Part shown: positions 1 to 14,333 of the stretch, piece by piece
Numbering within the stretch: the first letter of the stretch is position 1
Layout: each line of letters opens with the position of its first letter
Virus record (IMG/VR): IMGVR_UViG_2563366990_000002
Coordinates: 1-14,868 of that record
Strand: one strand, 5' to 3'
Length of the DNA: 14,868 bases
DNA from: a virus
Taxonomy: Duplodnaviria; Heunggongvirae; Uroviricota; Caudoviricetes
The notes under the pieces: model-generated
Seen by the model: the letters and a program-made list of their open reading frames with translations, nothing else
The model's database searches: none
Told to the model about the DNA's origin: nothing
Made by a program: the position numbers and the translations under genes

Positions 1-12
1 GAAATGTAAGGC

Positions 13-318
13 TTATGGGTCATTTCTGCGTTCCTTCTGCTTCAGGTAGCGGTCTGCCAGACGGCAAAAGCATTCTTCAATAAAGGCGCTGCCCATAATG
101 CCCAGCGCGCACGCCAGACCGACCACAACCAGTTCCGGCATGTCCGGAAATTTAAACAGCGGAATGGCGGCAACCGGTGCCACGGCAGAGCCCATAATCA
201 TTCGCCCGATAAGCAGACGGGCTGTGATGCGATCGCGGCTCACCATGAGACGCCCCAGCCCGATGGCAGCACCGATGATAATCAGTTTTGCCAGGAGTGA
301 AGTCTGACCGTCCGGCAT
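13..318 (-). CDS. small phage membrane protein, possibly holin-like (function tentative)
   Basis: 101-aa ORF with about three hydrophobic helix-like segments (LLAKLIIIGAAIGLGRLMV, IMGSAVAPVAAIPLF, LVVVGLACALGIMGSAFI); ATG at 318 lies 4 nt after the stop of the upstream tube-like gene, with a GGGGTGA Shine-Dalgarno-like motif. Product inferred from size and hydrophobicity only. Confidence 0.45.
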   Translation of the reverse strand: MPDGQTSLLAKLIIIGAAIGLGRLMVSRDRITARLLIGRMIMGSAVAPVAAIPLFKFPDMPELVVVGLACALGIMGSAFIEECFCRLADRYLKQKERRNDP

Positions 319-322
319 GGCA

Positions 323-784
323 TCACCCCTTCAGATCGCGGGTGTCACGGGCTGACAGGTAGGGCACGCCGTCAATGCTGATAAAGTCCGGGCTTGTGAC
401 CATGAACTTGATTTTTTTCGTGGTCTTTCCGGCTTCACCTGCGCTGATGTTCACCACGTCCGACAACATGGGGACGCAGCCGAATACCTCGATTTTTTCC
501 TCCTCGCTGCCGTTGTTGGCATAAAAGAGAAAATCCTTTTCAGGAATGGCACGCCACGACCCCGCAGAGCGGGCCACAGCACCAAACTTTTTAAAGTTCT
601 GCGCGTCGACTTCCACCTCCACATCGGCAGAAACAGAACCACGGGTGTAGCCGTTTGGCACGCCGCGCGTCTGTGCCACGGCGCTGTTGTCGGTGATGGT
701 GACGGTGGCGCTTTCCACGTGGATCATGATCCCGTCGTAGTTGATATCAAACGCGCCGCCGCTGATACGTTCATTTCCGGCCAT
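323..784 (-). CDS. putative phage tail tube-like structural protein
   Basis: 153 aa from ATG at 784 (MAGNERISGG...), preceded by GGAG; start lies 1 nt after the stop of the upstream sheath-like gene. Size and position directly after the sheath-like gene suggest a tube protein; I chose the 784 start over the longer 814 start because 814 overlaps the sheath-like gene. Confidence 0.5.
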   Translation of the reverse strand: MAGNERISGGAFDINYDGIMIHVESATVTITDNSAVAQTRGVPNGYTRGSVSADVEVEVDAQNFKKFGAVARSAGSWRAIPEKDFLFYANNGSEEEKIEVFGCVPMLSDVVNISAGEAGKTTKKIKFMVTSPDFISIDGVPYLSARDTRDLKG

Positions 785-785
785 G

Positions 786-1931
786 TCAGATCTCCAGTGC
801 TGTGTCGAGTTCAATACTTACGCCAATGGCTTTTGCGCTCTCGTAGGGGCGTACCACAATGTAAATCTGCACGTGTGTACTGCTGGTCCAGACGATGGTG
901 ATATCCCCGTCCTGTGGCGGTTTAACCTCGCCGGGGAACGGTACGCCGTTAATCTCCGTGGCGAGCGCCATTTCACGCAGCGTGCGGCTGAAATATGTCT
1001 GGCTGGCGGCAATGCTGCCCGGTGTGCTGTTGAGTGCGCGATCCGCAAGGCGGGCAATGGCGCGCAGACGTACACGGCGGGAGACCTTATCCACCACGCG
1101 CACGTTTTCGATGACCTGGTAATCGCCCCCCTCCACATCAAGGGTGCGTCCGTCTGACCAGTAGAGCCCGTCGAAATCGTGATACCACATGGGCACGCTG
1201 AAGCGTTTGCCTTCCAGCGAGCGCAGCGTGGCCAGCTCAAGGGGCTGTTTCTTGCCGTCCTGCGGGATCTCATCGTTACCCATCGCCACCAGGGCACCGG
1301 TTGCCACACGTGCCGGACTGTCCGCAACGGTGACGGAAGGATTACAGAGACGGCCCGCCAGTACGCCGGGCTCATTTCCCCATAAGCGGGGAACCACCAT
1401 CACGCCAGGTGCTGCCACGCCGTCCTGTATGGCACTGATGCGGGTGACGTATGCCGCCCATGCCTCATCCTTGCCCGGTCCGGCCACGCACAGCATGAAC
1501 CAGACAAAGCGGCCATAAGCGGACTGAAGCAGGGCGCGGGTTTCGGTGGCGCGGTTAACGGCATCTTTGGCCGTGATGTCAATGGCAATCACCACGCCCT
1601 CGGCAGAGGCGATGGTCTGCGCTTTTTTCACCGCGTCCACCCATGCGGCGTTAGCGTCGCCACCCTCCGGTGCCGGGGGTTTGGGTTCAGACAGAACGTG
1701 AACATAGGCAAACCAGTTCTGGCCACCGTTGGCGATTGCGGCGCTAAGCGTGGATTTAAGCAGGCTTTCATCCGGTCCCAGCACGTCGTCCAGGTCGGTC
1801 TCAGGGGAGACGGAAAGGGTGTTACCTGTGTTCTTTTTGCCATAGCCCACAAAAAGCAGCGTGCGCTCCACTTCACGGGTGGCACCGTTGAAACGGTTCT
1901 GATGGCTTACGGTTACATTCGGCCAGCTCAC
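786..1931 (-). CDS. putative phage tail sheath-like structural protein
   Basis: 381-aa ORF starting with GTG at 1931, preceded by AAGGAG at 7-nt spacing; tightly packed after the virion morphogenesis gene. Sheath assignment is from size, position and general resemblance to contractile-tail structural proteins, not from a verified motif. Confidence 0.5.
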   Translation of the reverse strand: MSWPNVTVSHQNRFNGATREVERTLLFVGYGKKNTGNTLSVSPETDLDDVLGPDESLLKSTLSAAIANGGQNWFAYVHVLSEPKPPAPEGGDANAAWVDAVKKAQTIASAEGVVIAIDITAKDAVNRATETRALLQSAYGRFVWFMLCVAGPGKDEAWAAYVTRISAIQDGVAAPGVMVVPRLWGNEPGVLAGRLCNPSVTVADSPARVATGALVAMGNDEIPQDGKKQPLELATLRSLEGKRFSVPMWYHDFDGLYWSDGRTLDVEGGDYQVIENVRVVDKVSRRVRLRAIARLADRALNSTPGSIAASQTYFSRTLREMALATEINGVPFPGEVKPPQDGDITIVWTSSTHVQIYIVVRPYESAKAIGVSIELDTALEI

Positions 1932-1942
1932 GGTGTGACTCC

Positions 1943-2707
1943 TTATCTGATATCCTGTGCGTCAACGTCCAGGCCGTAGCCCATTGCGTTCATCTGGCGT
2001 GCCAGGATGTGTGAAAATTCTTCGTTTGTTACCCCCAGAAAGACGCGCGACGGAAGGGTAATGGTCCATGTCCTTGGGCTGTTACGTTGTCGTATTCCCG
2101 GACCATCACTGCTGTGAAGGTCGCGAAAATTTTCCCAGTCGTCGCGCTCAAATCTTGCCAGCAGCCAGCCTGCCTGTCGGTTAGATACCCTTCTCCGTAT
2201 CATTGACAGGGTGGCTTTTCGCCAGCGCTTGCCGCTTTTCAGCTCAAGCCCCCATGCTCTCAGCGCCTGTGCCTGCTTCAGGGAACACGGTACGGAACGC
2301 CCCGGTTTTTTGTGCCGGAAGCTGTCGCCGTGATAGCGGATGGTGGCGCCGTTGTGATGTGCCCACGCGACGTTACTCGCCGACGCTGTCGGGCCGTATC
2401 TGACTGCGCGGAAATACACCTTCACCGCGTCCTGTCCCGGTATCTCCCGCACTGCCATAAGGCGCGGGAGTTTTTTAAGCATCTTTCCGGTGTTCTTGCC
2501 TGCCTTCTTTTTTTTATTTTTCCGTGGTTCCCACGGCGTGCCGTCTGGTGCGCACTGGTTGCGCTGATGGCGTCTGGCTGCGGCGATAATGCCGTGCCGG
2601 GCAATACGCCATAACAGGCGATGGCGTTTTTTCGGGGGCAGATCCAGCGACTGAAGCATCGCCTGCGCTTCTGCCAGCTGCTGCGGGTTCAGCTGGCCGC
2701 TTATCAT
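1943..2707 (-). CDS. phage virion morphogenesis / tail completion protein (P2 gpS-like family), longer than P2 gpS
   Basis: 254-aa ORF whose ATG overlaps the stop of the upstream gene (ATGA at 2704-2707). The N-terminal region with a PDGTPWEPRK-type segment and basic patch resembles the virion morphogenesis family as I recall it. Contains a Lys-rich stretch encoded by an A8 run. Confidence 0.6.
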   Translation of the reverse strand: MISGQLNPQQLAEAQAMLQSLDLPPKKRHRLLWRIARHGIIAAARRHQRNQCAPDGTPWEPRKNKKKKAGKNTGKMLKKLPRLMAVREIPGQDAVKVYFRAVRYGPTASASNVAWAHHNGATIRYHGDSFRHKKPGRSVPCSLKQAQALRAWGLELKSGKRWRKATLSMIRRRVSNRQAGWLLARFERDDWENFRDLHSSDGPGIRQRNSPRTWTITLPSRVFLGVTNEEFSHILARQMNAMGYGLDVDAQDIR

Positions 2708-3177
2708 TCGCGGCTCCTGCTGACAAACAGCTCCATGGTTTCCGCCGTCCAGATTTCAGGGTTAACCAGTGTCCAGCGTTTCCCCCTGTACGGAACGGGG
2801 CCGTCTTCCTGCACCCGGATGATCAGCGGGTCAGCCAGTCCCACCGTGATATCGAGAAGGCACGAGTCCTCATCGTTAAACTGCGGGTCGACGTTCACAT
2901 CCTCCGGGCGGAATTCCTCCCTCAGTGGGTCCGCGTGCTCTTCCAGCCAGGCCATGACCAGCGCGTAAACCAGCCCCGGTGAGTATTTACGGAACGGGAA
3001 GTTATCCCATGCAATCACGCCGGTGTACGTCATCACGCCCATGCGGATCTGGTCGTTACCCAGCGCCTTCTGACTGCGGATAAGCTGCGCGTCTTCCTGA
3101 CTGCTCATGAAGAACTGCATGGCGTCAGGCGGCAGATTTTCGGTAATGAAGGCGGTCAGGCTTTCCAGCTGGTTCAT
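2704..3177 (-). CDS. phage tail completion / head-tail joining protein (P2 gpR-like, tentative)
   Basis: 157-aa ORF; its ATG overlaps the stop of gpL (ATGA at 3174-3177) and its stop overlaps the start of the next gene. Position directly after gpL and before the gpS-like gene, plus size, suggest a gpR-like completion protein. Confidence 0.5.
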   Translation of the reverse strand: MNQLESLTAFITENLPPDAMQFFMSSQEDAQLIRSQKALGNDQIRMGVMTYTGVIAWDNFPFRKYSPGLVYALVMAWLEEHADPLREEFRPEDVNVDPQFNDEDSCLLDITVGLADPLIIRVQEDGPVPYRGKRWTLVNPEIWTAETMELFVSRSRE

Positions 3178-3647
3178 ATGATGTGCACTCCTGCGCGTCT
3201 GTGCCCCAGCATGTTACGCATGACCAGCGAGGCTTCAGCCAGTAAGGTGGCGCGTGTGTCCTCGCTTTCCTGCCCCGGATAGGTTTCACGGCGACCAATG
3301 GTGGCGAACTCGCCCATAAGATCGGCCTTGGCACGGGCATAAACGGCCTTTTTGTACTGTGCGACCAGCTGGGTTTCATCGCCCATCCTGGCCCCCGGTA
3401 CGTCTGCGGCGCGTTCATGCCCCTGCGCCTTCCAGTGCGCCACAACCGGCGCCAGCGTGGTGTTCACCTCGGCCACTGCGGCAAGCAGCGCCATGGCCGC
3501 CGTGTCGTCGGGTAAATCAGCCGGAAGCGTGCGTGACCCCTGAAGCTCAGCCAGATCAAGGTCCGGCCAGAACGGCTCGCCGTTTGTCACCGTCTGCGGT
3601 GTGGATTTCAGCGGTTTACCGCTGACGCTGAAGCTCGGTTCGCTCAT
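3174..3647 (-). CDS. L: phage head completion / stabilization protein (P2 gpL family)
   Basis: 157 aa from ATG at 3647 (MSEPSFSVSGKPL...), preceded by GAGG at about 6-nt spacing. Size is close to P2 gpL (about 169 aa) and it sits immediately after the small terminase gene as in the P2 O-N-M-L order. Confidence 0.8.
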   Translation of the reverse strand: MSEPSFSVSGKPLKSTPQTVTNGEPFWPDLDLAELQGSRTLPADLPDDTAAMALLAAVAEVNTTLAPVVAHWKAQGHERAADVPGARMGDETQLVAQYKKAVYARAKADLMGEFATIGRRETYPGQESEDTRATLLAEASLVMRNMLGHRRAGVHII

Positions 3648-3754
3648 GACGTGCCTCATATGAATAAAAAGGCGGGCTGTCCGGGATTCCACGGCCATAC
3701 AGTTTCCGTCACTGATGCCTCCTCCCGCGCCCGCCCGGCCCTGCGGGTAGTCGT

Positions 3755-4453
3755 TTACGCTACATTAAGGGCGCTGATGCGTGCCCTGATGCGCGCCCTG
3801 ATACTTTTTACGCCAGCGGTACGGCTCAGTGCTGCCGCCTGTGCCAGGTATGCGTCTGCCTTTTCCAGTACGGCAGTATCATTAATCGCGGTGGCTCTCG
3901 GTTTGCCCGCCTCGTCGCGCAGAAGATACAGCCCGGCAAATCTGAACCACTTCGCGCGGATTTCCTCATGCAGCCGCCACGTGGTGGTGACGTTCCTGAA
4001 GGTGCGCGAAAAATACGGCTCTATGCTGTGTCCGGCCTCGCTGTTGTCGGTGGCCCACTGCAGCACCGTGTCGGCCACGAAGGCGGGCAGGGTGCTACGG
4101 AAGTTGTCCGGCGTGGCCTGGCCTTCACTGATGGCAATGTCTGCCCAGTCAAGGGCGCGACTCAGGTCGCCCGTGTCGAACAGCCAGATGATGCAGTACA
4201 CCAGTACCGGGCAGGCGTGGCGCTTTCCGTCAGCGATATAGCGCTCCGCGACGGGCAGCCAGCGCGGCAGGAGAATGTCGCGCTTGAACGCCAGCCGCTC
4301 TTCACGGACCGGAAGACTGCGCAGCCGTGCCACATCGCGATCAAGCTCCGCGCGTAACAGGTGGAAGCTGACCGGGGAGGCCGTCAGCGCCTCCCGGCGT
4401 TCGAGTGCCTCCTGTGTGCGGATTTTCGCCCGGTGTCGCTGGCAGGGTGTCAT
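3755..4453 (-). CDS. M: terminase small (endonuclease) subunit, P2 gpM family
   Basis: 232-aa ORF directly after the major capsid gene; size and position match P2 gpM (about 247 aa). C-terminus carries an in-frame IRARIRAR repeat. Confidence 0.85.
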   Translation of the reverse strand: MTPCQRHRAKIRTQEALERREALTASPVSFHLLRAELDRDVARLRSLPVREERLAFKRDILLPRWLPVAERYIADGKRHACPVLVYCIIWLFDTGDLSRALDWADIAISEGQATPDNFRSTLPAFVADTVLQWATDNSEAGHSIEPYFSRTFRNVTTTWRLHEEIRAKWFRFAGLYLLRDEAGKPRATAINDTAVLEKADAYLAQAAALSRTAGVKSIRARIRARISALNVA

Positions 4454-4470
4454 TGCGCCGCCCTCTGTGC

Positions 4471-5490
4471 TTATGCGCCGACGTCTTCGGCTTCTTCTGC
4501 GCCCTTGATGGTCAGCTTGTCGTAGGCCGCGTAAATTTCGTCGTGCTCCACGGCGTAACCTTCCATGCGCAGATAGTTATTTTCAAAACGCTTGCGATCG
4601 TCGTTCCACTCCGCACGGCGCTGACGGGTGCCGCGCTGCGTGTAGATGTGAAGGTTTGCCAGCGTGGTGACAATCAGGCGCCCTTCCGGCATGAACGGCG
4701 GGGTGTATGCTGTCAGCCCGGCGATCTGGCGACCGATAAGCTGCGCGGCCACTTTTTCCGTGGGGGCGTCGATGGCGTTAAGCAGCGTCACCTTGTCCTG
4801 TGCCACAAGATCGGGCGCAACCAGTACCACCAGATCCGGATGACCGCGATACGACTCATCAATGAGGGTATGCACGAGGTCTGCCACGGCTGCATCCAGC
4901 CCGATAAAGTCGCCACCCTTGCCCAGCGTCGGGCCAGCCTCCACGATCTGTTTTGCGCTGCGGCCTTTGACGATGGCATGCCAGCCGGTGTTGACGTCCT
5001 CGCCGTTTTTGTTGGTTACCGGGTCGGTATCTTCGGCTACGCTGGTACCGTTAAAGGCGATGCGCAGGATATCCAGCGCAATCTGTCTGTTAACGAAATT
5101 CTGAATGCGGTTAAAGAACTCGTTTTCACTTCCTGCGTTCGCCCAGGTGACCAGTGTGGTGTACAGGAGGTGGGCGCCGGAATCGGTTTCAGCCAGCTTG
5201 TATTCATTCCCGGTAACACCCAGCGGAAGGGTGAAGCGGGCATTTTTTTTACGTCCGGTATGGAGGCCCGGAACGCCGGTGGTAACCACCTGGCCTGTCA
5301 CCTGTTCAACATCCAGCACGTTCGGCAGTTTTGATAAAAACTCGTCGGAGTGCATGATGGCGTCACGCAGCGCGGTCTCCTTCGGGTCAGACAGCGCAAA
5401 ATAGCGTGTGACGTCGTCAACTCCGTTTGCCGCACCCAGCCCGGCAGCGTACTTACGAAGCAGTGATTCGGTTTTCTGGTTCAGTTGCAT
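4471..5490 (-). CDS. N: major capsid protein, P2 gpN family
   Basis: 339-aa ORF between the scaffold and small terminase genes; size close to P2 gpN (about 357 aa) and conserved gene order. Uninterrupted long ORF with normal amino-acid composition. Confidence 0.9.
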   Translation of the reverse strand: MQLNQKTESLLRKYAAGLGAANGVDDVTRYFALSDPKETALRDAIMHSDEFLSKLPNVLDVEQVTGQVVTTGVPGLHTGRKKNARFTLPLGVTGNEYKLAETDSGAHLLYTTLVTWANAGSENEFFNRIQNFVNRQIALDILRIAFNGTSVAEDTDPVTNKNGEDVNTGWHAIVKGRSAKQIVEAGPTLGKGGDFIGLDAAVADLVHTLIDESYRGHPDLVVLVAPDLVAQDKVTLLNAIDAPTEKVAAQLIGRQIAGLTAYTPPFMPEGRLIVTTLANLHIYTQRGTRQRRAEWNDDRKRFENNYLRMEGYAVEHDEIYAAYDKLTIKGAEEAEDVGA

Positions 5491-5501
5491 GTTGCGTATC
5501 C

Positions 5502-6560
5502 TTAAACAAAGTCAAACGGTTTTTCGCTTTCTGCCGGTGTGCCGGCCGGGCGTGGCGTGATGCCGGTGGCTGACAGCTTCGTGGTCAGGTCGTTAAGTTT
5601 TTCGGCAATGGCTTTGATTTCTTCTTTGTCGGTGTCGTCCCGGCGACGGGCGGCAAAGCGGCGGTAACGTTCGCCTTTTTCCGGTGTGATGGTGCTGAAG
5701 GCTTTGATGGCGTCTTCCAGCTTCGCTTTTGCAGCGGTAAAGGCTTCGGCCTTAACCTCGTCTTCCGGGGCGGCTTTCACTTCTTCTGCCAGCTCTGCCA
5801 CCTCTGCGGCGGCGTCGGCGATTTCGGCGGCGATTTCCGCGACTTCGGCTTTTGCTTCTTCCGGCGTGTCTGCTGTGCCCTCGCCAGCGGCAGCGGCGCT
5901 GCCGCCTTCCACCAGGGTGATCAGCTTTTCAAGCAGTGCTTTAATTTCGTCCATTTTTGCGTCCTCGCCTGTATCAGGCTTACTGGTATCGGTGTTGTCG
6001 GTGTTGTCGGTCTGTCCTGCGCTGAACAGGCGTTTCAGGAATGATTCAGGTTTACTGGGGGCATGGGTGGTGTCCGGTGACAGGCTGCCCAGCGTGAACG
6101 TCTGGCAGTTCGCCCGCTGTGCTGTGTATTCCTCGTTGTTCAGGGTGAAGCGTATTTTTTCCGTCCCCAGACTGGCGGGGATATCCGTCACCGCCACGCC
6201 CAGGAGATAGTCGCGTCCGCTCCGGGCGAAGTTCTCCACTATCTCGGCGGATGTGAACAGCTTCTGCCCCAGTCTGTTGGCTTCAATCAGGTACTGGTTA
6301 GGGACCAGCCGCGCGTAGAGGCGGGTTTTACCGTCCTCGCCGGTTTCCGCTTTCAGTGAGTCCACTTCACCCAGATTACTGGTGTACTGGCGGTGTCCGA
6401 TTTCTTCCTCATGCCAGGGCCACAGCATCGCCGTGTAGGTGTTGCGGGAATAGGTTTCAGCGGCATCAGTCAGCCACTGCGGATCAATTTCGCGGCCGTC
6501 AACGGTCGGTCCTGATGTGGCGATACATATCCAGTCGGTCATCAACGTTGGCTGCGGCAT
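5502..6560 (-). CDS. O: capsid scaffolding protein, P2 gpO family, with extended Ala/Glu-rich region
   Basis: 352 aa from ATG at 6560 (MPQPTLMTDW...), preceded by GAGG. First gene of the minus-strand late operon, followed by the capsid gene. Long Ala/Glu/Lys-rich coiled-coil-like region typical of scaffold proteins. The ORF track's longer 408-aa version starts inside the regulatory region and is less likely. Confidence 0.85.
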   Translation of the reverse strand: MPQPTLMTDWICIATSGPTVDGREIDPQWLTDAAETYSRNTYTAMLWPWHEEEIGHRQYTSNLGEVDSLKAETGEDGKTRLYARLVPNQYLIEANRLGQKLFTSAEIVENFARSGRDYLLGVAVTDIPASLGTEKIRFTLNNEEYTAQRANCQTFTLGSLSPDTTHAPSKPESFLKRLFSAGQTDNTDNTDTSKPDTGEDAKMDEIKALLEKLITLVEGGSAAAAGEGTADTPEEAKAEVAEIAAEIADAAAEVAELAEEVKAAPEDEVKAEAFTAAKAKLEDAIKAFSTITPEKGERYRRFAARRRDDTDKEEIKAIAEKLNDLTTKLSATGITPRPAGTPAESEKPFDFV

Positions 6561-6726
6561 CGTGGCCTCTTTTACGTGAAAATCTGAAGAACTCCGGTGA
6601 GTGTCGGGATTTTTACAGCGGGGGGCTACTGGCTGAATTCGGCTGTCTTCGGATAACGTGGGATAGCCGAACACAGCCGAAATTTTCTGCCTGAATGCGG
6701 GCCGGATGCGCCGCCATAATGGGCGC
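6561..6726. promoter_or_regulatory. divergent late-promoter region between the gpO and gpP operons
   Basis: 166-bp non-coding gap between divergently transcribed capsid and terminase/portal operons. Contains a 13-bp imperfect inverted repeat (CGGCTGTCTTCGG at 6640-6652, CCGAACACAGCCG at 6667-6679) and a TGT-N10-ACA element at 6602-6617. In P2 the equivalent region carries Ogr-activated late promoters. Confidence 0.55.
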
Positions 6727-8529
6727 ATGGCTAAATATTCTGACGAAATTAAAGAGGCGGCCCGCTCGCTTTATCTGAAGCGGTGGCATCCCCGAGATAT
6801 TGCGGCGGAGCTCGGTATTCCGCCGCGCACGGTTTACCACTGGTGTGATGTGGGGCAGTGGGCCGCCCTGCTGCCCGCTGAATCCGTTGAGGAGGTGATC
6901 GCCCGGCGTATTGATGTGCTGACCGGGCGCGAGGGTAAGACGGAGTGCGAACTTGCCGAACTGCGCGAGCTTATCGCACAGCACGTGAAGATTATCGCCC
7001 AGAAAAACAAACACGCTGAAAGGATGGCGGAAATTGCCGCCACGCGTCCGGCAGTGTGCGACGACGGTGTGGCGGCGACCAGCGGCGGGGGGGAAGGGAA
7101 AAAGCGGCGCTACCGGAAAAACAACGTTTCCGGGCTGACTGCTGAAATGCTGGATGCATGGGCGCGTAAAAATCTTTATGCCTACCAGCTGCACTGCCGC
7201 GAGAACCGGCACCGTGAGTGGCGTTTCATCCTCAAGAGTCGCCAGATAGGCATGACCTGGTATTTTGCATGGGAGGCGTTCGAAGATGCGGTGGTGACTG
7301 GTGATAACCAGATATTCTTTTCTGCGTCACGGGTTCAGGCGGAAATCTTCCGCGAATATATTATTAATTTCGCCCTGCAGTTCGGGATCACGCTCACGGG
7401 TAAGCATATCCGTTTAAGCAATGGCGCAATGCTGCGTTTCCTGTCCACCAATGCCAGTACCGCCCAGGGATTTAACGGCCACCTTTACGGCGATGAGGTG
7501 TTCTGGATCCCAAAATTCACGCGACTGCATGAAGTGGCCTCGGCAATGGCAACCCACGACAAATACCGCACGACGTACTTTTCGACACCCAGCGCCAAAA
7601 CCCACCAGGCTTATCTGGTCTGGAACGGTGACGACTGGCGCGGGGATGATCCGGCGCGTCGTGCTGTTGAGTTTCCGAAAGAAAGCGCGATGCGTGTGGG
7701 CTGTGAATGCCCTGACGGGATCTGGCGCTACATTATCCGGCTGGAAGAGGCGGTGGCGGGTGGCCTGTCTGCACGGGTTGATATTGAACGTATCAGGAAC
7801 CGCTACAACCCGACCACCTATGCGATGCTGTACGGCTGCGAGTTTGTTGACAGCAAGGATGCGGTATTTAAGTTCTCCGAACTGGTCAGGTGTGAGGTGG
7901 AGATGGAGACGTGGGGTGACTACGATCCCACGGCGGCACGTCCGTTCGGCAATCGTGAGGTGTGGGCGGGCTTTGACCCGTCAAGGTCCGGGGATAATTC
8001 CACGTTTGTAATTGTGGCTCCGCCTGTCCATGAGGGCGAGCGGTTCCGTGTGCTCGCCGTCTGGCAGTGGCAGGGATTTAACTTCACCTGGCAGGCCGAT
8101 CAGATCCGCGAACTGATGCAGCGCTTTAACATTACCTATATCGGCATAGATATCACCGGTATCGGGAAAGGGGTGTTTGATATCGTCAGTCGCTTTGCGC
8201 CACGTGAGGCTAACGCCATTCTTTACAGCGTGGAGAGCAAAAACCGCCTGGTGATGAAAATGATAGACGTGGTGGCCCATAAGCGTATCGAGTGGGCGAA
8301 AGACGCCATTGATGAGGCCAGCCGTGAACGCACGGAGATCCCCGCGTCGTTCATGTCCATACGCCGCACCACCACAAAAAGCGGTAACGCGCTGACGTTC
8401 GTGGCGGAACGGTCGGATGTTACGGGGCATGCGGATGTGTTTTTTGCCATTTCGCACGCCGTGATTAATGAGCCTGTAGATTATGACTATGAACGCCCGT
8501 CCACATGGGCCTTCGGGAAAGCCGCATGA
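6727..8529 (+). CDS. P: terminase large (ATPase) subunit, P2 gpP family
   Basis: 600 aa from ATG at 6727 (MAKYSDEIK...); size matches P2 gpP (about 590 aa). Divergent from gpO and followed by the portal gene with a 4-nt ATGA overlap. An alternative start at 6706 would add 7 aa. Confidence 0.9.
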   Translation: MAKYSDEIKEAARSLYLKRWHPRDIAAELGIPPRTVYHWCDVGQWAALLPAESVEEVIARRIDVLTGREGKTECELAELRELIAQHVKIIAQKNKHAERMAEIAATRPAVCDDGVAATSGGGEGKKRRYRKNNVSGLTAEMLDAWARKNLYAYQLHCRENRHREWRFILKSRQIGMTWYFAWEAFEDAVVTGDNQIFFSASRVQAEIFREYIINFALQFGITLTGKHIRLSNGAMLRFLSTNASTAQGFNGHLYGDEVFWIPKFTRLHEVASAMATHDKYRTTYFSTPSAKTHQAYLVWNGDDWRGDDPARRAVEFPKESAMRVGCECPDGIWRYIIRLEEAVAGGLSARVDIERIRNRYNPTTYAMLYGCEFVDSKDAVFKFSELVRCEVEMETWGDYDPTAARPFGNREVWAGFDPSRSGDNSTFVIVAPPVHEGERFRVLAVWQWQGFNFTWQADQIRELMQRFNITYIGIDITGIGKGVFDIVSRFAPREANAILYSVESKNRLVMKMIDVVAHKRIEWAKDAIDEASRERTEIPASFMSIRRTTTKSGNALTFVAERSDVTGHADVFFAISHAVINEPVDYDYERPSTWAFGKAA

Positions 8530-9578
8530 GCAAGAAACGCAGAAACAAAACGTCACGCGTGACGAAAAAAGCATTCACGCCCGCACGTGGCAGCACAATC
8601 ACGTTTGGTCAGCCGGAACCGGTGCTGACCACCGGCACGGACTACCATAACATCTGGTATGACAACGAACACAACCACTGGCAGCTGCCGATTAACCGCC
8701 TGGCACTGGCGCAGCTCCCGAACCTTAACGCCCAGCACGGTGGGGTGCTGTATGCCCGCCGTAACATGGTGGCGGGGGGCTATACCGGTGGTGGTCTCAC
8801 AACGGACCAGATGGAACAGGCGGTATTTGACTACCTGTTGTTCGGCGATCTCGCCCTGCTCAAGGTGCGTAACGTATTCGGCGACGTCGTGGCACTTGAG
8901 CCGCTTCCGTCGCTGTATCTCCGGCGCCGCAAAACCGGTGAGTTCGTGGTGCTTCAGGAAGGTCCCGCGCTGGTCTATACGCCGGAAGATATTATCTTTC
9001 TGCGGATGTATGATCCGCGTCAGCAAATTTACGGGCTGCCGGATTATATCGGTGGCATCCACTCGGCGCTGCTGAACAGCGAGGCCAGCCTTTTTCGTCG
9101 CCGTTACTACAACAACGGGGCGCATATGGGCTTTTTGCTGTATACGAACGACCCTGGGATCACCACGGAGATGGAGGATGAGATCCGCGAGAAGGTGGCG
9201 GAGTCTAAGGGGCTGGGAAATTTCCGCAATCTGTACATCAACATCCCCAAAGGTTCGCCGGATGGGGTGAAAATTATTCCGATTGGTGAGGTGAGCGCCA
9301 AGGATGAATTTTCAAACATCAAGGGGATCAGCGCCCAGGATGTGTTTACGGCACACCGCTTTCCTGCCGGTCTTGCGGGGATTATCCCCACGAACGGGGC
9401 CACCATCCCTAACCCGGAAACGACGCGTGAAACGTACCGCAAGGATGAGGTGATACCGCTTCAGCGTAAAATCATGAACGCCGTGAACAGCGATCCCGAT
9501 ATACCGGAACACCTTTATCTTTGTTTTGATGTGGATGCCGGGCATGTGGCGGAAGAAAAAGCGGTGCCGGTCGGGTAA
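8526..9578 (+). CDS. Q: portal protein, P2 gpQ family
   Basis: 350 aa from ATG at 8526 (MSKKRRNK...), overlapping the gpP stop. Size matches P2 gpQ (about 344 aa) and P-then-Q co-transcription matches P2. Confidence 0.9.
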   Translation: MSKKRRNKTSRVTKKAFTPARGSTITFGQPEPVLTTGTDYHNIWYDNEHNHWQLPINRLALAQLPNLNAQHGGVLYARRNMVAGGYTGGGLTTDQMEQAVFDYLLFGDLALLKVRNVFGDVVALEPLPSLYLRRRKTGEFVVLQEGPALVYTPEDIIFLRMYDPRQQIYGLPDYIGGIHSALLNSEASLFRRRYYNNGAHMGFLLYTNDPGITTEMEDEIREKVAESKGLGNFRNLYINIPKGSPDGVKIIPIGEVSAKDEFSNIKGISAQDVFTAHRFPAGLAGIIPTNGATIPNPETTRETYRKDEVIPLQRKIMNAVNSDPDIPEHLYLCFDVDAGHVAEEKAVPVG

Positions 9579-9615: not shown

Positions 9616-9879
9616 ATGCGGATTTTTAAAGCCCGGTGTCCTGACTGTGGCGCACCTGCTGTCATCCGGAAGACAGACTGGAAAACCCCTGAACTTGCGG
9701 ATCTGTACTGTGCATGCAGTGATGTCGAATGCGGGCATACCTTCGTCTGTACGATGACCTTTTCCCATACCCTCAGCCCCGGTGCCCGCTCCGGTCGCAA
9801 TATGGTGAAGTTTCTTGTTGATGCCATGCGCCCGGAAGATCGCCGGTATGCGCTTGAACTACTGTCGCGGCGTTCCTGA
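9616..9879 (+). CDS. Ogr/Delta-family C4 zinc-finger transcriptional activator homolog
   Basis: 87 aa from ATG at 9616, preceded by strong GGGAGG at 4-nt spacing. Motif CPDC-x20-C-x-C-x4-C-x2-TF aligns with P2 Ogr (CPLC ... YHQCQNVNCSATF). Has a roughly 40-aa C-terminal extension relative to the zinc-finger core. Confidence 0.8.
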   Translation: MRIFKARCPDCGAPAVIRKTDWKTPELADLYCACSDVECGHTFVCTMTFSHTLSPGARSGRNMVKFLVDAMRPEDRRYALELLSRRS

Positions 9880-9895: not shown

Positions 9896-9940
9896 GCTGC
9901 TTCGCCGGGGCAAAAAGAATTTTTACCCCGGCGAAGCAGC
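9896..9940. repeat. perfect 15-bp-stem inverted repeat (GCTGCTTCGCCGGGG ... CCCCGGCGAAGCAGC) with A5/T5 loop
   Basis: Read directly from the sequence. Located 17 bp after the Ogr-like gene stop. No U-tract follows on either strand, so it is not a classic intrinsic terminator; could be an RNA stability or termination element or a protein-binding or packaging-related site. Confidence 0.7.
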
Positions 9941-9975
9941 CCTGATAAAGGGGGGGGGTGGTGTAAATTCGGACG

Positions 9976-10007
9976 TTATAAAATTAAAAAAGCGCCGTAA
10001 CGGCGCT
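9976..10007 (-). terminator. rho-independent terminator for the minus-strand 75-aa gene
   Basis: Hairpin AGCGCCG-TAA-CGGCGCT at 9991-10007 followed on the minus strand by TTTTTAATTTT (9976-9990), 30 nt downstream of the stop at 10038. Confidence 0.65.
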
Positions 10008-10037
10008 CGGGTAGAGTATTTATTCATGCAAAAATAG

Positions 10038-10265
10038 TTAATCCGGCTCCCCTCGTATTATTGTTTCTGTATGAATATCGGGAATCTGTTTTGTACCGGA
10101 TAGATATTTTACAGCAAGACTCATTAAGTCATTGTAATTATAATCCCTTCCAGCTACAGCTCCACTCAGGATGTAGGCGTCTTCAATATTGGCTGCGATG
10201 CAGGACAAGATATCAGCTAAAAGGGTTGTATCGTAGTTCGTATAGCGTTTGATTAGATGAGACAT
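10038..10265 (-). CDS. hypothetical 75-aa protein, AT-rich accessory (moron-like) gene
   Basis: ATG at 10265 preceded by GGAGG at 4-nt spacing; own terminator downstream and AT-rich upstream promoter-like region. Local GC is far below the rest of the window. No recognisable family. The ORF track's longer 90-aa version lacks a ribosome-binding site. Confidence 0.6.
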   Translation of the reverse strand: MSHLIKRYTNYDTTLLADILSCIAANIEDAYILSGAVAGRDYNYNDLMSLAVKYLSGTKQIPDIHTETIIRGEPD

Positions 10266-10445
10266 AAAACCTCCGGGTTGCTTATTAATATTGCTGGCGA
10301 AATCAGTCATTGTGTTAGCTATGTAATATTAACAGAAGTGTAAAGTGTTTTTATTCCGGGGTGGTAATGTTGCATATATTTTCTTAGTGTGTGTCGGGTG
10401 AATGAATTGCGTTGCGGTGAAAAAATCGGGCGCGTCAGTGCGGCC

Positions 10446-10601
10446 TTACTGCTGACGGCGTTCCCGGAGTTCGGTCAGTGCTGCAAGTAAATTCTCCCAC
10501 CACGTTTCTTCCACGACCGGGTTTTGTCGTGAAAGCAGCTGCTGTGCCGACTCAATCATTTTCGTAAGCTCTCTGTCGCTGATCCTCCTGGTGCTGTTCA
10601 T
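10446..10601 (-). CDS. hypothetical 51-aa protein
   Basis: ATG at 10601 (MNSTRRISDRELTK...) preceded by AAGGAG at 6-nt spacing; 48 bp downstream of the preceding ORF in the same orientation; weak hairpin plus T6 after the stop. Charged and helical in character. Confidence 0.5.
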   Translation of the reverse strand: MNSTRRISDRELTKMIESAQQLLSRQNPVVEETWWENLLAALTELRERRQQ

Positions 10602-10649
10602 GGTGCGCTCCTTTAGTTGGCTGTTTCTGGTTATGTTCATGGTCTTTGT

Positions 10650-11054
10650 TTACCTGCGTGATTGTCTGCCAGCGGCTGAATGCACATAGCGGGCAATTGC
10701 CGCTTTGCGGTTAATCGATGCCAGTGTTCTGGTGAGTTCTGCGTTGTGTTTGTGTGCCTGCTCTTCGTGGTACTGCCGCATGATTTTTCCGGCAGGCGTG
10801 AGCGGCTCCGGCTCTCCGGGCGGACGGCGCGGACGAACGGCGACAAGCCAGCTGCGGTTGGTGCTGTCCGGTCGTCCGTTGAGTATGTCGGTGATGATGG
10901 TCGTGGTGGTGCGATCGGGACTGACGACCGTGATTTCCAGCTCATCGCCCGGTTGTGGCCCCGTGGCAATGTTGTTCAGGGTCAGTAAGGGCGTGCGCTG
11001 GCGCATCAGTTCGTCAAAACGCTGTCGCTGCATGGCGCAATAAAAGCGGGTCAT
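10650..11054 (-). CDS. hypothetical 134-aa protein, translationally coupled to the replication gene
   Basis: ATG at 11054 overlaps the gpA stop (ATGA at 11051-11054). Pro/Arg-rich sequence with no recognised family. The region is GC-rich with several overlapping alternative-frame ORFs, so coding status is moderately uncertain. Confidence 0.5.
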   Translation of the reverse strand: MTRFYCAMQRQRFDELMRQRTPLLTLNNIATGPQPGDELEITVVSPDRTTTTIITDILNGRPDSTNRSWLVAVRPRRPPGEPEPLTPAGKIMRQYHEEQAHKHNAELTRTLASINRKAAIARYVHSAAGRQSRR

Positions 11055-13570
11055 TGTGGCGCCTCCGTATTCGGTGCGGGGGTGATATCAATGCGGCGGG
11101 TGCTGTCATTCCAGTACGAGGTGCGCCCGTCAGCCAGGCGCACGCGGGCACCGTGACGGACGGAAACGACGGCGCTTTCATGCAGCTGCACGCCCAGCGC
11201 ATCAAGCTCGCGGGTGATTTGTGCGGTGATGTGTGGCTCAGCGGTCAGAGCGACACTCACGCGAACGCCGCCAGCGGGCGCACTGATGCCGCCGTTTTTC
11301 ACGGTTTCCGTGTCAGGTGGCGGGCTTTTCAGCTGCCTGGTGAGTTGTTTTCGCTCTGTGGGGGTCAGTGACCTTAACCATTCACCCAAATCACCTTCCG
11401 GCAGGGTAAGTCGCTGCTCCCTGCGTCCGTCCGGCTGCCTTTCTGGCGGGTCGTTTATGGTCAGATTCTGGTCAGGGGGACAGTTATTGCCACGAGTCCA
11501 AGGTGCGGCAAAGCCGCACTCAACGTCAAAACCCTCGTCCGTGCGGTCTTCGTTTTCCGGCTTACGTCTGACCAGTTTCCAGGTGTCCGGGTGGGTGCAT
11601 ATGGTGTAGCGCTCCCCGAGTGACGGGGCGCGGACGCCGTAAATACGTTGCGGGAATTCGCCGTAGTCGTTGGCCTCTTCGGCAGTTTCGTATGCGGTGC
11701 GGACCAGGTACGTGTTGCGGGGAATGAGCACACCACCCTGGCGGGTGATATAGGTGGCAAAACATCCCACGTCGGCGGCGGCCAGTATGGCGTCAATGTC
11801 GTCATGGTCCAGACGCTGCGGGGCAGCCGGGTTACGGGCCATCTGCCCGGCAAGACGGCGGAGTTCGCGCCATACCTGGCGGGGCGGGATACCGAAGAAC
11901 TGGAACTGGTGGATGCGGTGAAGGCCTGCCCAGCCGATGGCGTTCTCCACGGTTTCGGCCATGGTTTTGCCTGATTCCTTATCGACGTAAGGTTTGCCGG
12001 TTTTCGGGTCATTCCCCATGAAGGTGCTGGCGTCCAGGTTCTTACCGATATAGGTCGCGATATAGCTTGTCGGTGTGCCTTTTGTCGGGTCGATTTTTTC
12101 GCATTTAAAACGCGGGGAGATATCATCACCCAGCTCTGCGCGGTCCTCCCTGATGGCGGCGTTGCGCATGATTTCAGTGATACGGGCTTCGTTTTCCTGG
12201 CTGGTGAATACCAGCATGTGCCAGTGCGGTGTACCGTCGTGGTGGGGCTCCACTGTGCGCACGCCGTACCAGCCCAGCCCGGCCTTGTCGATGGCCCTGC
12301 GGACGGCGGCGAAAAAGCGGTAAACCAGATAATCACTGGCATCGCGTACCGTTGCTCCGCAGTATTTCGGGTTCAGGCTGCCGTCATCGTTCACGCTGTG
12401 AAAACGGGAAGGGGCTGTGACGGTGACGAAAAACGCCACGTCGCCGCGTGCTTCGGCGACCTGCTCCATCCCCCGGACGCAGGCCATCATCTCGTTACGG
12501 CGGTTACGCGGATTAGAGAGACCTGCCCAGTAGATATCCTCAAGGCTGAACCGTTCTCCCTCTTCGTTCTCGATGTCCCAGGCCTTCAGAAAATCGCGGG
12601 TGCGCTGGCGTTTTTCGCGCCAGTCCAGTAACGCTTCATGGCTGATATATACCGACGTCTTACGTGACACCAGGCCTGCGGCGCGTAACAGCTCTTCACG
12701 CCAGATGTCCCGGAGGTGTCTTAACTGACTGTTCCACCATGTCGCACAGGAAAGGCGCATGACCGCACCCGGCACCCGTTCCGGGTCGGGGTCGGTGCGG
12801 CGGTCGGGCCTGATTTCCAGCGACGGCCAGCAGGGTGGCGTGATACCCAGTTTTAACGCCATGTGTGCCAGTGGCTGGTAGGTCAGTAACCAGGTGAGCA
12901 GGTCATCGTCACCCCTGCCGGTCTTTTCGATGACTTCATCACATGCGCGCTCCAGTGCGGTGGAAAACGCGGTGGCGGTCAGGGTGGCAAGGCGCTGGAT
13001 TTCGTCACGGCTCAGCTGTGGCAGCATAAGCAGTTCATCCAGCCGTTCGCGCGCGGCGGTGGCCTTAAAGGCCGGGGTGGCAAAGCGTTCATTCACACGG
13101 GCGATACGTTTCAGGCGGGCACGCAGCCCGTGACGAACGAAGTTATCCGCCGCATATGCGCTGTTATTCTTAAGCCCTTCCCGGCGTGCGCTCTCCTGTT
13201 TGCGGCTCAGGCGCGCCAGGTCACGGATGAGCGGACCGGCAAGAAACGGCGGCAGGGCGCGCAGCTCTGCCATGGCTTCAGATACCAGCGTTGGCGGATT
13301 TTCGCGTTTGTGTCGCGTCAGTTTTTCCAGTCTGATCCGACGCTCTTCGTCGTGATGAAGATGCGAATTAATTCGCTTCCCTTCGTCTGTGGTTGTCAGG
13401 AAGGCGACGGTTTCTTCATCCAGTCTGGCGTCAGTGCGAATATCCTCGTTGATGTAGCTCTGAATGGCCTGGCGTAATGCGGTTGGCTGCGCTCTGCCGA
13501 ACGTTTCAGGATCGATAACCGGTAGCGGGGCGTTCCACGGGTACGCCAGCTGTGCATTGTGGTCACTCAT
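11051..13570 (-). CDS. A: replication initiation endonuclease, P2 gpA family (rolling-circle HUH nickase)
   Basis: 839 aa from ATG at 13570 (MSDHNAQLAYPW...). Contains the HUH-type motif PHWHMLVF characteristic of P2 A / phiX174 A-type rolling-circle initiators; size comparable to P2 gpA (about 761 aa). The track's GTG start at 13579 is less likely than the ATG that overlaps the upstream stop. Confidence 0.9.
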   Translation of the reverse strand: MSDHNAQLAYPWNAPLPVIDPETFGRAQPTALRQAIQSYINEDIRTDARLDEETVAFLTTTDEGKRINSHLHHDEERRIRLEKLTRHKRENPPTLVSEAMAELRALPPFLAGPLIRDLARLSRKQESARREGLKNNSAYAADNFVRHGLRARLKRIARVNERFATPAFKATAARERLDELLMLPQLSRDEIQRLATLTATAFSTALERACDEVIEKTGRGDDDLLTWLLTYQPLAHMALKLGITPPCWPSLEIRPDRRTDPDPERVPGAVMRLSCATWWNSQLRHLRDIWREELLRAAGLVSRKTSVYISHEALLDWREKRQRTRDFLKAWDIENEEGERFSLEDIYWAGLSNPRNRRNEMMACVRGMEQVAEARGDVAFFVTVTAPSRFHSVNDDGSLNPKYCGATVRDASDYLVYRFFAAVRRAIDKAGLGWYGVRTVEPHHDGTPHWHMLVFTSQENEARITEIMRNAAIREDRAELGDDISPRFKCEKIDPTKGTPTSYIATYIGKNLDASTFMGNDPKTGKPYVDKESGKTMAETVENAIGWAGLHRIHQFQFFGIPPRQVWRELRRLAGQMARNPAAPQRLDHDDIDAILAAADVGCFATYITRQGGVLIPRNTYLVRTAYETAEEANDYGEFPQRIYGVRAPSLGERYTICTHPDTWKLVRRKPENEDRTDEGFDVECGFAAPWTRGNNCPPDQNLTINDPPERQPDGRREQRLTLPEGDLGEWLRSLTPTERKQLTRQLKSPPPDTETVKNGGISAPAGGVRVSVALTAEPHITAQITRELDALGVQLHESAVVSVRHGARVRLADGRTSYWNDSTRRIDITPAPNTEAPQ

Positions 13571-13983
13571 GCGTCGCACTCCCCGGCAGTCGCCGCCTGA
13601 AACGCCGCGCGGTACAGCACGAGAAGGCGCTGGTATTCACCGATAAAGTCTTCTGCGGTGTATATGCCTTTCACGGCCACGCTGTGCGTTGTCATTTCCA
13701 GAACAAGCGTCATCTCTGACGACGACCAGCTGATGGCGGTGCTGTCGGTTCCGTTGATGTGAAATAAACCAAAACCATCACCATCGCCTTTCACGTCCAC
13801 GCGGTAACGGCCGTCAACGGTGAAGGAGAAATCCCCGTATGTGGTGACGCGTCTGGCGGCCTGTTTACAGGCGCGGCGGTAATAGTCGTGCCAGTCGTTC
13901 AGGCGGGAAGCCAGCCGGGGATCCACTGCCCACATCCAGTTAAAAAAATCCTGAATATCTGAAAGTCCCTTAACGCTCTTCAT
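13567..13983 (-). CDS. hypothetical 138-aa early-operon protein
   Basis: ATG at 13983 preceded by GGAGG at 5-nt spacing; stop overlaps the gpA start (ATGA at 13567-13570). Position corresponds to the small ORFs upstream of A in P2-like early operons. Confidence 0.6.
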   Translation of the reverse strand: MKSVKGLSDIQDFFNWMWAVDPRLASRLNDWHDYYRRACKQAARRVTTYGDFSFTVDGRYRVDVKGDGDGFGLFHINGTDSTAISWSSSEMTLVLEMTTHSVAVKGIYTAEDFIGEYQRLLVLYRAAFQAATAGECDA

Positions 13984-14051: not shown

Positions 14052-14333
14052 TTAGTGGTGGTGTTGCTGCTGGTTGATAAGGTCCTGCAGTTCTGCCAGG
14101 TCTTCGGCCAGATAGCTGAAGACTGCCGCGTAATACCCGGCAGCGATACCATCGTTAAGTCGATGTAATGCGTTTGACTGCATGATGAAGGTGACAGATG
14201 CAGCCCGATGGAGTCTGCGGTTAATTTCAGTGCGGATGTGAAGACGCTCAGCGCGGGCGCGCTGTTGGTGACTGGAGTTCAGACGTGTGCTCTTCCGATC
14301 TGCGCGGGCGCGCTGTTGTTTGCGGTTTGCCAT
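14052..14333 (-). CDS. hypothetical small early-operon protein, reading frame contaminated by a 51-bp adapter-derived insertion
   Basis: ATG at 14333 preceded by GAGG. The encoded segment ADRKSTRLNSSHQQRAR (and SEEHTSELQSPTARPR in the overlapping 14248..14514 minus-strand track ORF) comes from the Illumina adapter plus duplicated flank; the native protein is probably about 76 aa. Confidence 0.5.
   Translation of the reverse strand: MANRKQQRARADRKSTRLNSSHQQRARAERLHIRTEINRRLHRAASVTFIMQSNALHRLNDGIAAGYYAAVFSYLAEDLAELQDLINQQQHHH
14268..14301 (+). other. Illumina TruSeq adapter sequence (GTGACTGGAGTTCAGACGTGTGCTCTTCCGATCT), assembly contamination
   Basis: Exact 34-nt match to the standard Illumina adapter as I recall it, flanked by a perfect 17-bp direct duplication GCGCGGGCGCGCTGTTG at 14251-14267 and 14302-14318. 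Confidence 0.9.

Follow-up and report, generated by a model that had tools for sequence, protein, structure and literature searches.

An HP1-type late gene order in a P2-like prophage of Escherichia coli

We analysed a stretch of 14,868 nucleotides (nt; hereafter the window) of a tailed-phage record, IMGVR_UViG_2563366990_000002, with emphasis on the five minus-strand genes that follow the head-completion gene L (positions 13-3177). The minus-strand genes from 6560 down to 13 very probably form the proximal part of a single long late operon of an HP1-type P2-like phage (Peduoviridae), carried as a prophage by Escherichia coli. A sequence-only reading of the same DNA had noticed that the tail genes follow head completion directly, and had explained this by the joining of a P2-type head to a differently organised tail module, with no lysis cassette. 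The order of the genes is as it described, and it is odd when set against P2. It is, however, the textbook order of the sister group of P2 (HP1, K139, phiO18P, ESSI-2, SI7, phi3), and the locus calls for no explanation of its own: such an arrangement has been described before and is that of an ordinary HP1-group late operon.

Gene order and the origin of the head and tail modules

Genes were assigned by Pfam and PHROGs profile searches, and all five minus-strand genes between 13 and 3177 match curated families well above threshold. They belong to a tightly packed minus-strand run from 6560 down to 13, which is followed by plus-strand genes at 6727-9578 and by further minus-strand genes rightward. 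In the presumed order of transcription, with lengths in amino acids (aa), the run contains:

5502..6560, minus strand: capsid scaffold/protease, gpO-like, 352 aa (PF05929, E-value (E) 7e-44); ATG at 6560 with AAGAGG upstream; first gene of the late operon
4471..5490, minus strand: major capsid protein of the P2 family, gpN-like (PF05125, E 4e-88)
3755..4453, minus strand: small terminase subunit, gpM-like (PF05944, E 2e-36)
3174..3647, minus strand: head completion protein/head-tail adaptor, gpL-like, 157 aa (Phage_GPL, PF05926, E 4e-34; phrog_71)
2704..3177, minus strand: tail terminator, gpR-like, 157 aa (P2_Phage_GpR, PF06891, E 3e-18; phrog_65)
1943..2707, minus strand: tail completion/virion morphogenesis protein, gpS-like, 254 aa (Phage_tail_S, PF05069, E 8e-12; phrog_26, E 1e-29)
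786..1931, minus strand: contractile tail sheath, 381 aa (DUF2586, PF10758, E 3e-129, 432 bits; phrog_907, tail sheath)
323..784, minus strand: tail tube protein, 153 aa (Phage_HP1_Orf24/DUF2597, PF10772, E 3e-51, 174 bits; phrog_1182, tail protein)
13..318, minus strand: holin of the P2 gpY family, 101 aa (Phage_holin_3_2, PF04550, E 1e-19, 71 bits; phrog_175, holin, E 6e-31)
1..23, minus strand: first 23 nt of a DNA methyltransferase gene, ATG at 23-21, overlapping the 3' end of the holin gene by 11 nt and cut by the window edge

The family searches, together with the fold comparison given below, confirm the gene content and order after gpL that had been read from the sequence (R, S, sheath, tube, membrane protein), and the proposed translational coupling is borne out by 4-nt ATGA overlaps at L/R and at R/S. 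Further down, the spacing is 11 nt between S and sheath, 1 nt between sheath and tube, and 4 nt between tube and holin. Across the minus-strand run the junctions range from -4 to +17 nt, and the sole larger gap, 107 nt between M and L, has its counterpart in P2 (about 100 nt). The sheath gene has a GTG start with AAGGAG 7 nt upstream. Two starts were moved from those of the mechanical open reading frames (ORFs), from TTG 814 to ATG 784 for the tube gene and from 3698 to ATG 3647 for L, and both corrected starts are those of the RefSeq annotation of an E. coli prophage 97.8% identical to the window.

The synteny comparison with P2, 186 and phiCTX shows that the order is unlike theirs, as had been proposed. 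These phages have the order L-X-holin-endolysin-spanins-R-S-baseplate-fibres-FI-FII-E/E'-T-U-D: X and the lysis genes (Y, K, lysA/B/C) stand between L and R, baseplate and fibre genes come next, and in P2 the sheath and tube genes FI and FII lie in a separate F operon about 8 kilobases (kb) further on. In the window there is neither X nor a lysis gene between L and R; R and S come directly after L, and a DUF2586-type sheath gene and an HP1-Orf24-type tube gene come directly after S. The organisation is thus not of the P2 type (Peduovirus, Eganvirus, Citexvirus), since the order differs and similarity to FI/FII is lacking. P2 nevertheless has homologues of Q, P, O, N, M, L, R, S, Ogr and A, the same divergence of P-Q from O-N-M-L, and a gpY of the same family as the window holin.

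HP1 (Hpunavirus, Peduoviridae), by contrast with P2, has the identical order in its RefSeq record: O, N, M, orf20 (L-like), orf21 (R-like), orf22 (S-like), orf23 (sheath), orf24 (tube), hol, lys and an Rz-like gene. The comparison covered the HP1 late genes orf17-orf27, and there too P and Q are divergent and a dyad lies in the O/P intergenic region. More generally, the annotated records of HP1, K139, SI7, ESSI-2 and phi3 share the order O-N-M-L-R-S-sheath-tube-holin-endolysin-spanin-...-tape measure, with a small DksA-like gene after the tube in some, although the ESSI-2 and phi3 records have no annotated holin and place endolysin and spanin after the tube gene. The window has this L-R-S-sheath-tube-lysis-tape measure order as far as the holin, where it ends. 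The order is that of five genera: Hpunavirus, Irrigatiovirus, Longwoodvirus, Seongnamvirus and Phitrevirus. The sequence-only reading had itself named the presence of this order in a well-described phage group as evidence that would overturn its mosaic explanation, and the HP1-group phages provide it.

The closest isolated phages are the Salmonella phages SI7, SW3 and SW5 (Irrigatiovirus, Peduoviridae). SI7 is 71% identical in nucleotide sequence over 2529-5328, has the same order with holin, endolysin and spanin directly after the tube gene, and differs in having no methyltransferase gene. Its proteins are 67% (sheath), 85% (tube), 69% (holin), 74% (L), 63% (R) and 77% (P) identical to those of the window, with S at just 46%. 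Because megablast similarity extends over only about 29% of the query, the nucleotide comparison indicates that the window phage is a different species from SI7; it probably also belongs to a different genus.

Could the locus have arisen recently as a mosaic, a foreign and differently organised tail module having been attached to a P2-type head and the lysis genes lost or moved far away? Head genes that match P2 stand here beside sheath and tube proteins that show no BLAST or hhalign similarity to FI/FII, and the HP1-group tail module has been described as a paralogue far more ancient than the head module (PMC10612066). Several arguments nonetheless make a recent event highly improbable. First, the six head and packaging genes are all closer to HP1 than to P2, with tblastn identities to HP1 and P2, respectively, of 52% and 33% for Q, 47% and 41% for P, 48% and 33% for O, 34% and 29% for N, 39% and 29% for M, and 32% and 29% for L. 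Because identity to HP1 exceeds that to P2 for every gene, the head module is of HP1 type and not a P2 head grafted onto another tail. The sheath and tube are likewise 48% and 52% identical to their HP1 counterparts, with no P2 match. Second, the L-R-S-sheath-tube-lysis junction is common to the five genera, and any exchange is therefore older than the HP1 subgroup and not a feature of this locus. Third, the lysis cassette comes directly after the tube gene. Judging from these comparisons, what is mosaic here is limited to an ancient tail-module event that has already been published. Lavigne et al. (2009) separated 'HP1-like viruses' from 'P2-like viruses' and noted six capsid genes in the same order in both groups, the other structural genes being generally without similarity to those of P2 (PMC2771037). 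An analysis of 2023 found the tail module to be far more diverged between the HP1 and P2 subgroups than the head module, with sheath homology between subgroups detectable only with HHpred, and proposed that one clade took up a much older paralogue of the tail module (PMC10612066).

The sheath and tube proteins have no sequence relative in the PDB and no tblastn match to P2 FI or FII. Profile-against-sequence comparison by hhalign, of the DUF2586 alignment with P2 FI and of the tube alignment with P2 FII, gave no relationship (probability 0.3%), with shallow profiles (effective number of sequences 1.6 and 2.6), whereas the published sheath link needed profiles of HHpred depth (PMC10612066). Alignments were built from database homologues and structures then predicted. 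The predicted sheath structure contains the sheath fold of the superfamily of phages, tailocins and contractile injection systems, an assignment based on residues 22-260, and the predicted tube structure has the beta-sandwich tube/Hcp fold with one helix. A DUF2586 sheath is present in 76 phage records, which cover phages of Vibrio, Escherichia, Pseudoalteromonas, Pseudomonas, Salmonella, Pasteurella, Aeromonas, Haemophilus and others. The two genes named after domains of unknown function can now be labelled firmly, DUF2586 as tail sheath and DUF2597/HP1_Orf24 as tail tube, with the fold comparison in support.

The holin and the lysis cassette

The sequence-only reading had raised the possibility that the 101-aa membrane protein is a displaced holin, and the profile matches, the similarity to P2 gpY and the hydropathy pattern all agree with this. 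The protein shares 41% identity with P2 gpY over 71 aa (tblastn, E 2e-11) and 69% with the SI7 holin, and has no significant tblastn match to the HP1 holin. A simple Kyte-Doolittle hydropathy calculation, as distinct from a dedicated topology predictor, gives three hydrophobic stretches (about 8-26, 34-55 and 60-80) and, after them, a C-terminal tail rich in K, R, E and D. P2 Y has the same pattern and aligns with the protein over its full length. HP1 hol differs, with 78 aa and two hydrophobic segments against 101 aa and three in the P2-Y-type protein of the window. By analogy with P2 and HP1 biology, the protein would act as a class-I-like holin of the P2-Y family, encoded by the first gene of the lysis cassette. 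PF04550 had also been considered as the family of the HP1 holin; this was dropped, the tblastn match being to P2 Y and not to HP1 hol.

The protein might instead be an unrelated small membrane moron or an antiholin-like regulator, the real holin being encoded elsewhere. Its lack of significant similarity to the HP1 holin would fit such a role, as would the fact that its holin function is read from sequence. Yet its score of 71 bits on PF04550 is far above the gathering cutoff of 25, and it also matches the PHROG holin family (E 6e-31); it aligns with P2 Y throughout, sharing the three hydrophobic segments and the charged tail; the gene occupies the holin slot upstream of endolysin and spanin in the relatives of the window and in SI7; and the late region of these relatives has no other recorded holin family gene. 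Taken together, these points leave a role other than holin with almost no probability.

Is there then a lysis cassette? The claim that there is none fails, as the holin is its first gene and the others follow in near-identical relatives. The identical 101-aa sequence is encoded by thousands of assemblies, and we read the downstream genes in six long contigs that carry it. After the holin, all six encode a 250-aa N6_N4_Mtase methyltransferase (phrog_67, E 2e-70), whose ATG overlaps the end of the holin gene by 11 nt, a 112-aa Peptidase_M15_4 protein (endolysin by PHROG) and a 128-aa Rz-like spanin (phrog_1152). Beyond the spanin, again in 6/6, come Phage_TAC_10, DUF6890, tape measure, DUF2590, Baseplate_J, Tail_P2_I, fibre, fibre-assembly and HP1_ORF34 genes. 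The order holin, methyltransferase, M15 endolysin, spanin, tail assembly chaperone, tape measure is also found in NZ_AP045167. Window positions 1-400, to the very first base, align without gaps to two of the relatives, with 2 substitutions in L007 and 3 in L010; the aligned stretch takes in the methyltransferase ATG at window 23-21, and the whole gene lies at L007:10296-11048 and L010:16271-17023. Because window 1-400 is near-identical to relatives whose cassette continues past the holin, the lysis cassette is not absent: it opens with the holin gene and is cut by the window edge, and in the relatives the cassette, with endolysin and spanin, lies between the tube gene and the chaperone and tape measure genes. 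From this alignment, the window's own left flank would carry the endolysin and spanin genes.

The lysis genes are not orthologous to those of HP1 although they hold the same position, because the holin matches P2 Y and not the HP1 protein. Apart from its host (Haemophilus instead of E. coli), HP1 differs from the E. coli relatives, whose endolysin is an M15 peptidase and whose lysis cassette includes a methyltransferase gene. No methyltransferase gene stands between holin and endolysin in HP1, SI7, K139, ESSI-2 or phi3. Among phages, the methyltransferase is best matched in Escherichia phage Chuche (74%), whose annotation has a gpCom (control of modification) feature in the matched region. One could tentatively suppose that the window comes from an uncharacterised, genus-level HP1-type lineage of Peduoviridae with a hybrid lysis cassette (P2-Y-type holin, M15 peptidase endolysin and N6/N4 methyltransferase), an idea that we regard as rather doubtful. 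If it were true, the methyltransferase would be made late, with the lysis proteins, and might, e.g., protect progeny DNA from restriction.

Late expression and the neighbouring genes

To the right of the minus-strand run, the window contains:

6561..6726, no strand: divergent O/P intergenic region with presumed late promoters and a dyad of 18-nt arms (6638-6655/6664-6681) of putative function
6727..8529, plus strand: large terminase subunit, gpP-like (Terminase_5, Terminase_6N, Terminase_6C)
8526..9578, plus strand: portal protein, gpQ-like (PF04860); ATG overlaps the P stop (ATGA); start matches RefSeq
9616..9879, plus strand: Ogr/Delta-like zinc-finger protein, presumed late-gene activator (PF04606, E 1e-15)
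11051-13579, minus strand: gpA replication endonuclease (Pfam/PHROGs)

We propose that transcription of the late operon would start in the O/P intergenic region, probably activated by the Ogr/Delta zinc-finger protein, and would proceed through O, N, M and L, then R and S, and then the DUF2586 sheath, the HP1-Orf24-type tube and the P2-Y-type holin. Downstream, it would continue into the methyltransferase, M15 endolysin and Rz-like spanin genes, and then into those for the tail assembly chaperone, tape measure, baseplate and fibres. Head, neck, sheath, tube and lysis genes would thus be co-transcribed and partly translationally coupled, and the holin would time the release of endolysin and spanin. 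For co-transcription and Ogr dependence we infer by analogy with the biology of P2 and HP1. No minus-strand terminator-like site was found between 13 and 6560 in a terminator scan that performs near chance level and was used only for the absence of minus-strand sites inside the operon. The sigma-70 promoter scan was at chance level as well, with 4 sites against an expected 3.8.

The P2-type Ogr-binding dyad TGT-N12-ACA occurs three times in the window, no more than expected by chance, and nowhere in the O/P intergenic region. The dyad that this region does contain has arms that are 89% complementary and 8 nt apart. HP1 has a dyad with 28-nt arms at the equivalent place (L002:13683-13750), with TCTTCGGATA in common with the window, and the O/P intergenic regions of SI7 and P2 have nothing comparable. 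This dyad may be the late-activator site of the HP1 subgroup.

As a separate observation, the Ogr/Delta ORF of the window has a tblastn match in HP1 (27% over 62 aa, E 2e-7) at 10447-10632 on the minus strand. The matching HP1 segment is unannotated in the RefSeq record and lies between orf14 and the portal gene, which is the position of the Ogr-like gene in the window.

Some of the evidence weighs against an HP1-type late operon as we have described it. First, its regulation by Ogr is an analogy only, because TGT-N12-ACA is absent from the O/P intergenic region. Second, the window stops 12 bases past the holin stop, so that the endolysin and spanin genes of its own copy are out of sight. Third, confidence is low in the C-terminal third of the sheath model, which was made with AlphaFold2 from a 30-sequence alignment (63-88% identity to the query): the predicted local distance difference test (pLDDT) score is below 40 across residues 261-381 (window 786-1148), even though these residues are highly conserved in the alignment. 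Fourth, at the BLAST level the holin and S resemble P2 Y and P2 S and not the HP1 proteins. The S protein of the window has no BLAST match to HP1 orf22; aligned with the S proteins of SI7, ESSI-2, HP1 and P2, it shows an HP1-type insertion of about 100 aa relative to P2 gpS.

Prophage relatives and local sequence features

Prophages in 12 complete E. coli genomes match 92-95% of the window's length at 97-98% identity, and 1,463 of 5,426 genomes have weaker matches. In one of the 12, E. coli JNEC-KY171 (L010, about 4437-36425), a complete related prophage of about 32 kb lies between prpB and prpC, splitting the propionate operon, and carries an integrase, cox, replication genes and a full tail set. 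These data also bear on whether the window might come from a defective prophage remnant or a tailocin, its gene order being a product of decay or domestication. The portal, terminase, scaffold, capsid, head-completion, Ogr and gpA genes are intact in the window, and tailocins lack them; the relatives carry integrase, cox and the full tail set, several of them with intact fibre genes; and the order is that of isolated plaque-forming phages. Decay or domestication is accordingly a most unlikely source of the gene order, and an HP1-type phage remains our reading.

The annotation of the JNEC-KY171 prophage splits the tail-fibre gene into two pseudogene fragments and places two Hok/Gef genes at the tail end. 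Within the window, GC content falls to 0.48-0.50 at about 9900-11050, against 0.56-0.63 in the rest. This stretch holds a 90-aa ORF (10038-10310, minus strand), which matched nothing in Pfam or PHROG and is followed by a strong terminator-like hairpin at 10008-9990, and a 64-aa ORF (phrog_14672). The cargo of this slot between ogr and the replication genes varies among relatives, e.g., a YafO-family toxin or a MarR-like gene, and the slot looks like a hot-spot for morons or cargo.

The S gene diverges in a sharply bounded block at about 2045-2600, which has about 42-56% nucleotide identity to the 236-aa allele found in L004-type E. coli prophages; on either side of it, identity to these prophages is 98-100%. 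The block coincides with the HP1-type insertion in gpS and has a lysine-rich stretch inside. Since otherwise near-identical prophages differ in this block, one prophage population has two alleles for the central part of the tail-completion protein.

Finally, an exact 34-nt Illumina TruSeq adapter, AGATCGGAAGAGCACACGTCTGAACTCCAGTCAC, is present at 14268-14301 on the minus strand, preceded by a 17-nt duplicate of the flanking GCGCGGGCGCGCTGTTG; duplicate and adapter together span 14251-14301, and precisely these 51 nt are missing from a related E. coli prophage. The insertion is an assembly artefact, which adds 17 spurious codons to the small 'derepression protein' gene (14052-14333, phrog_3688).

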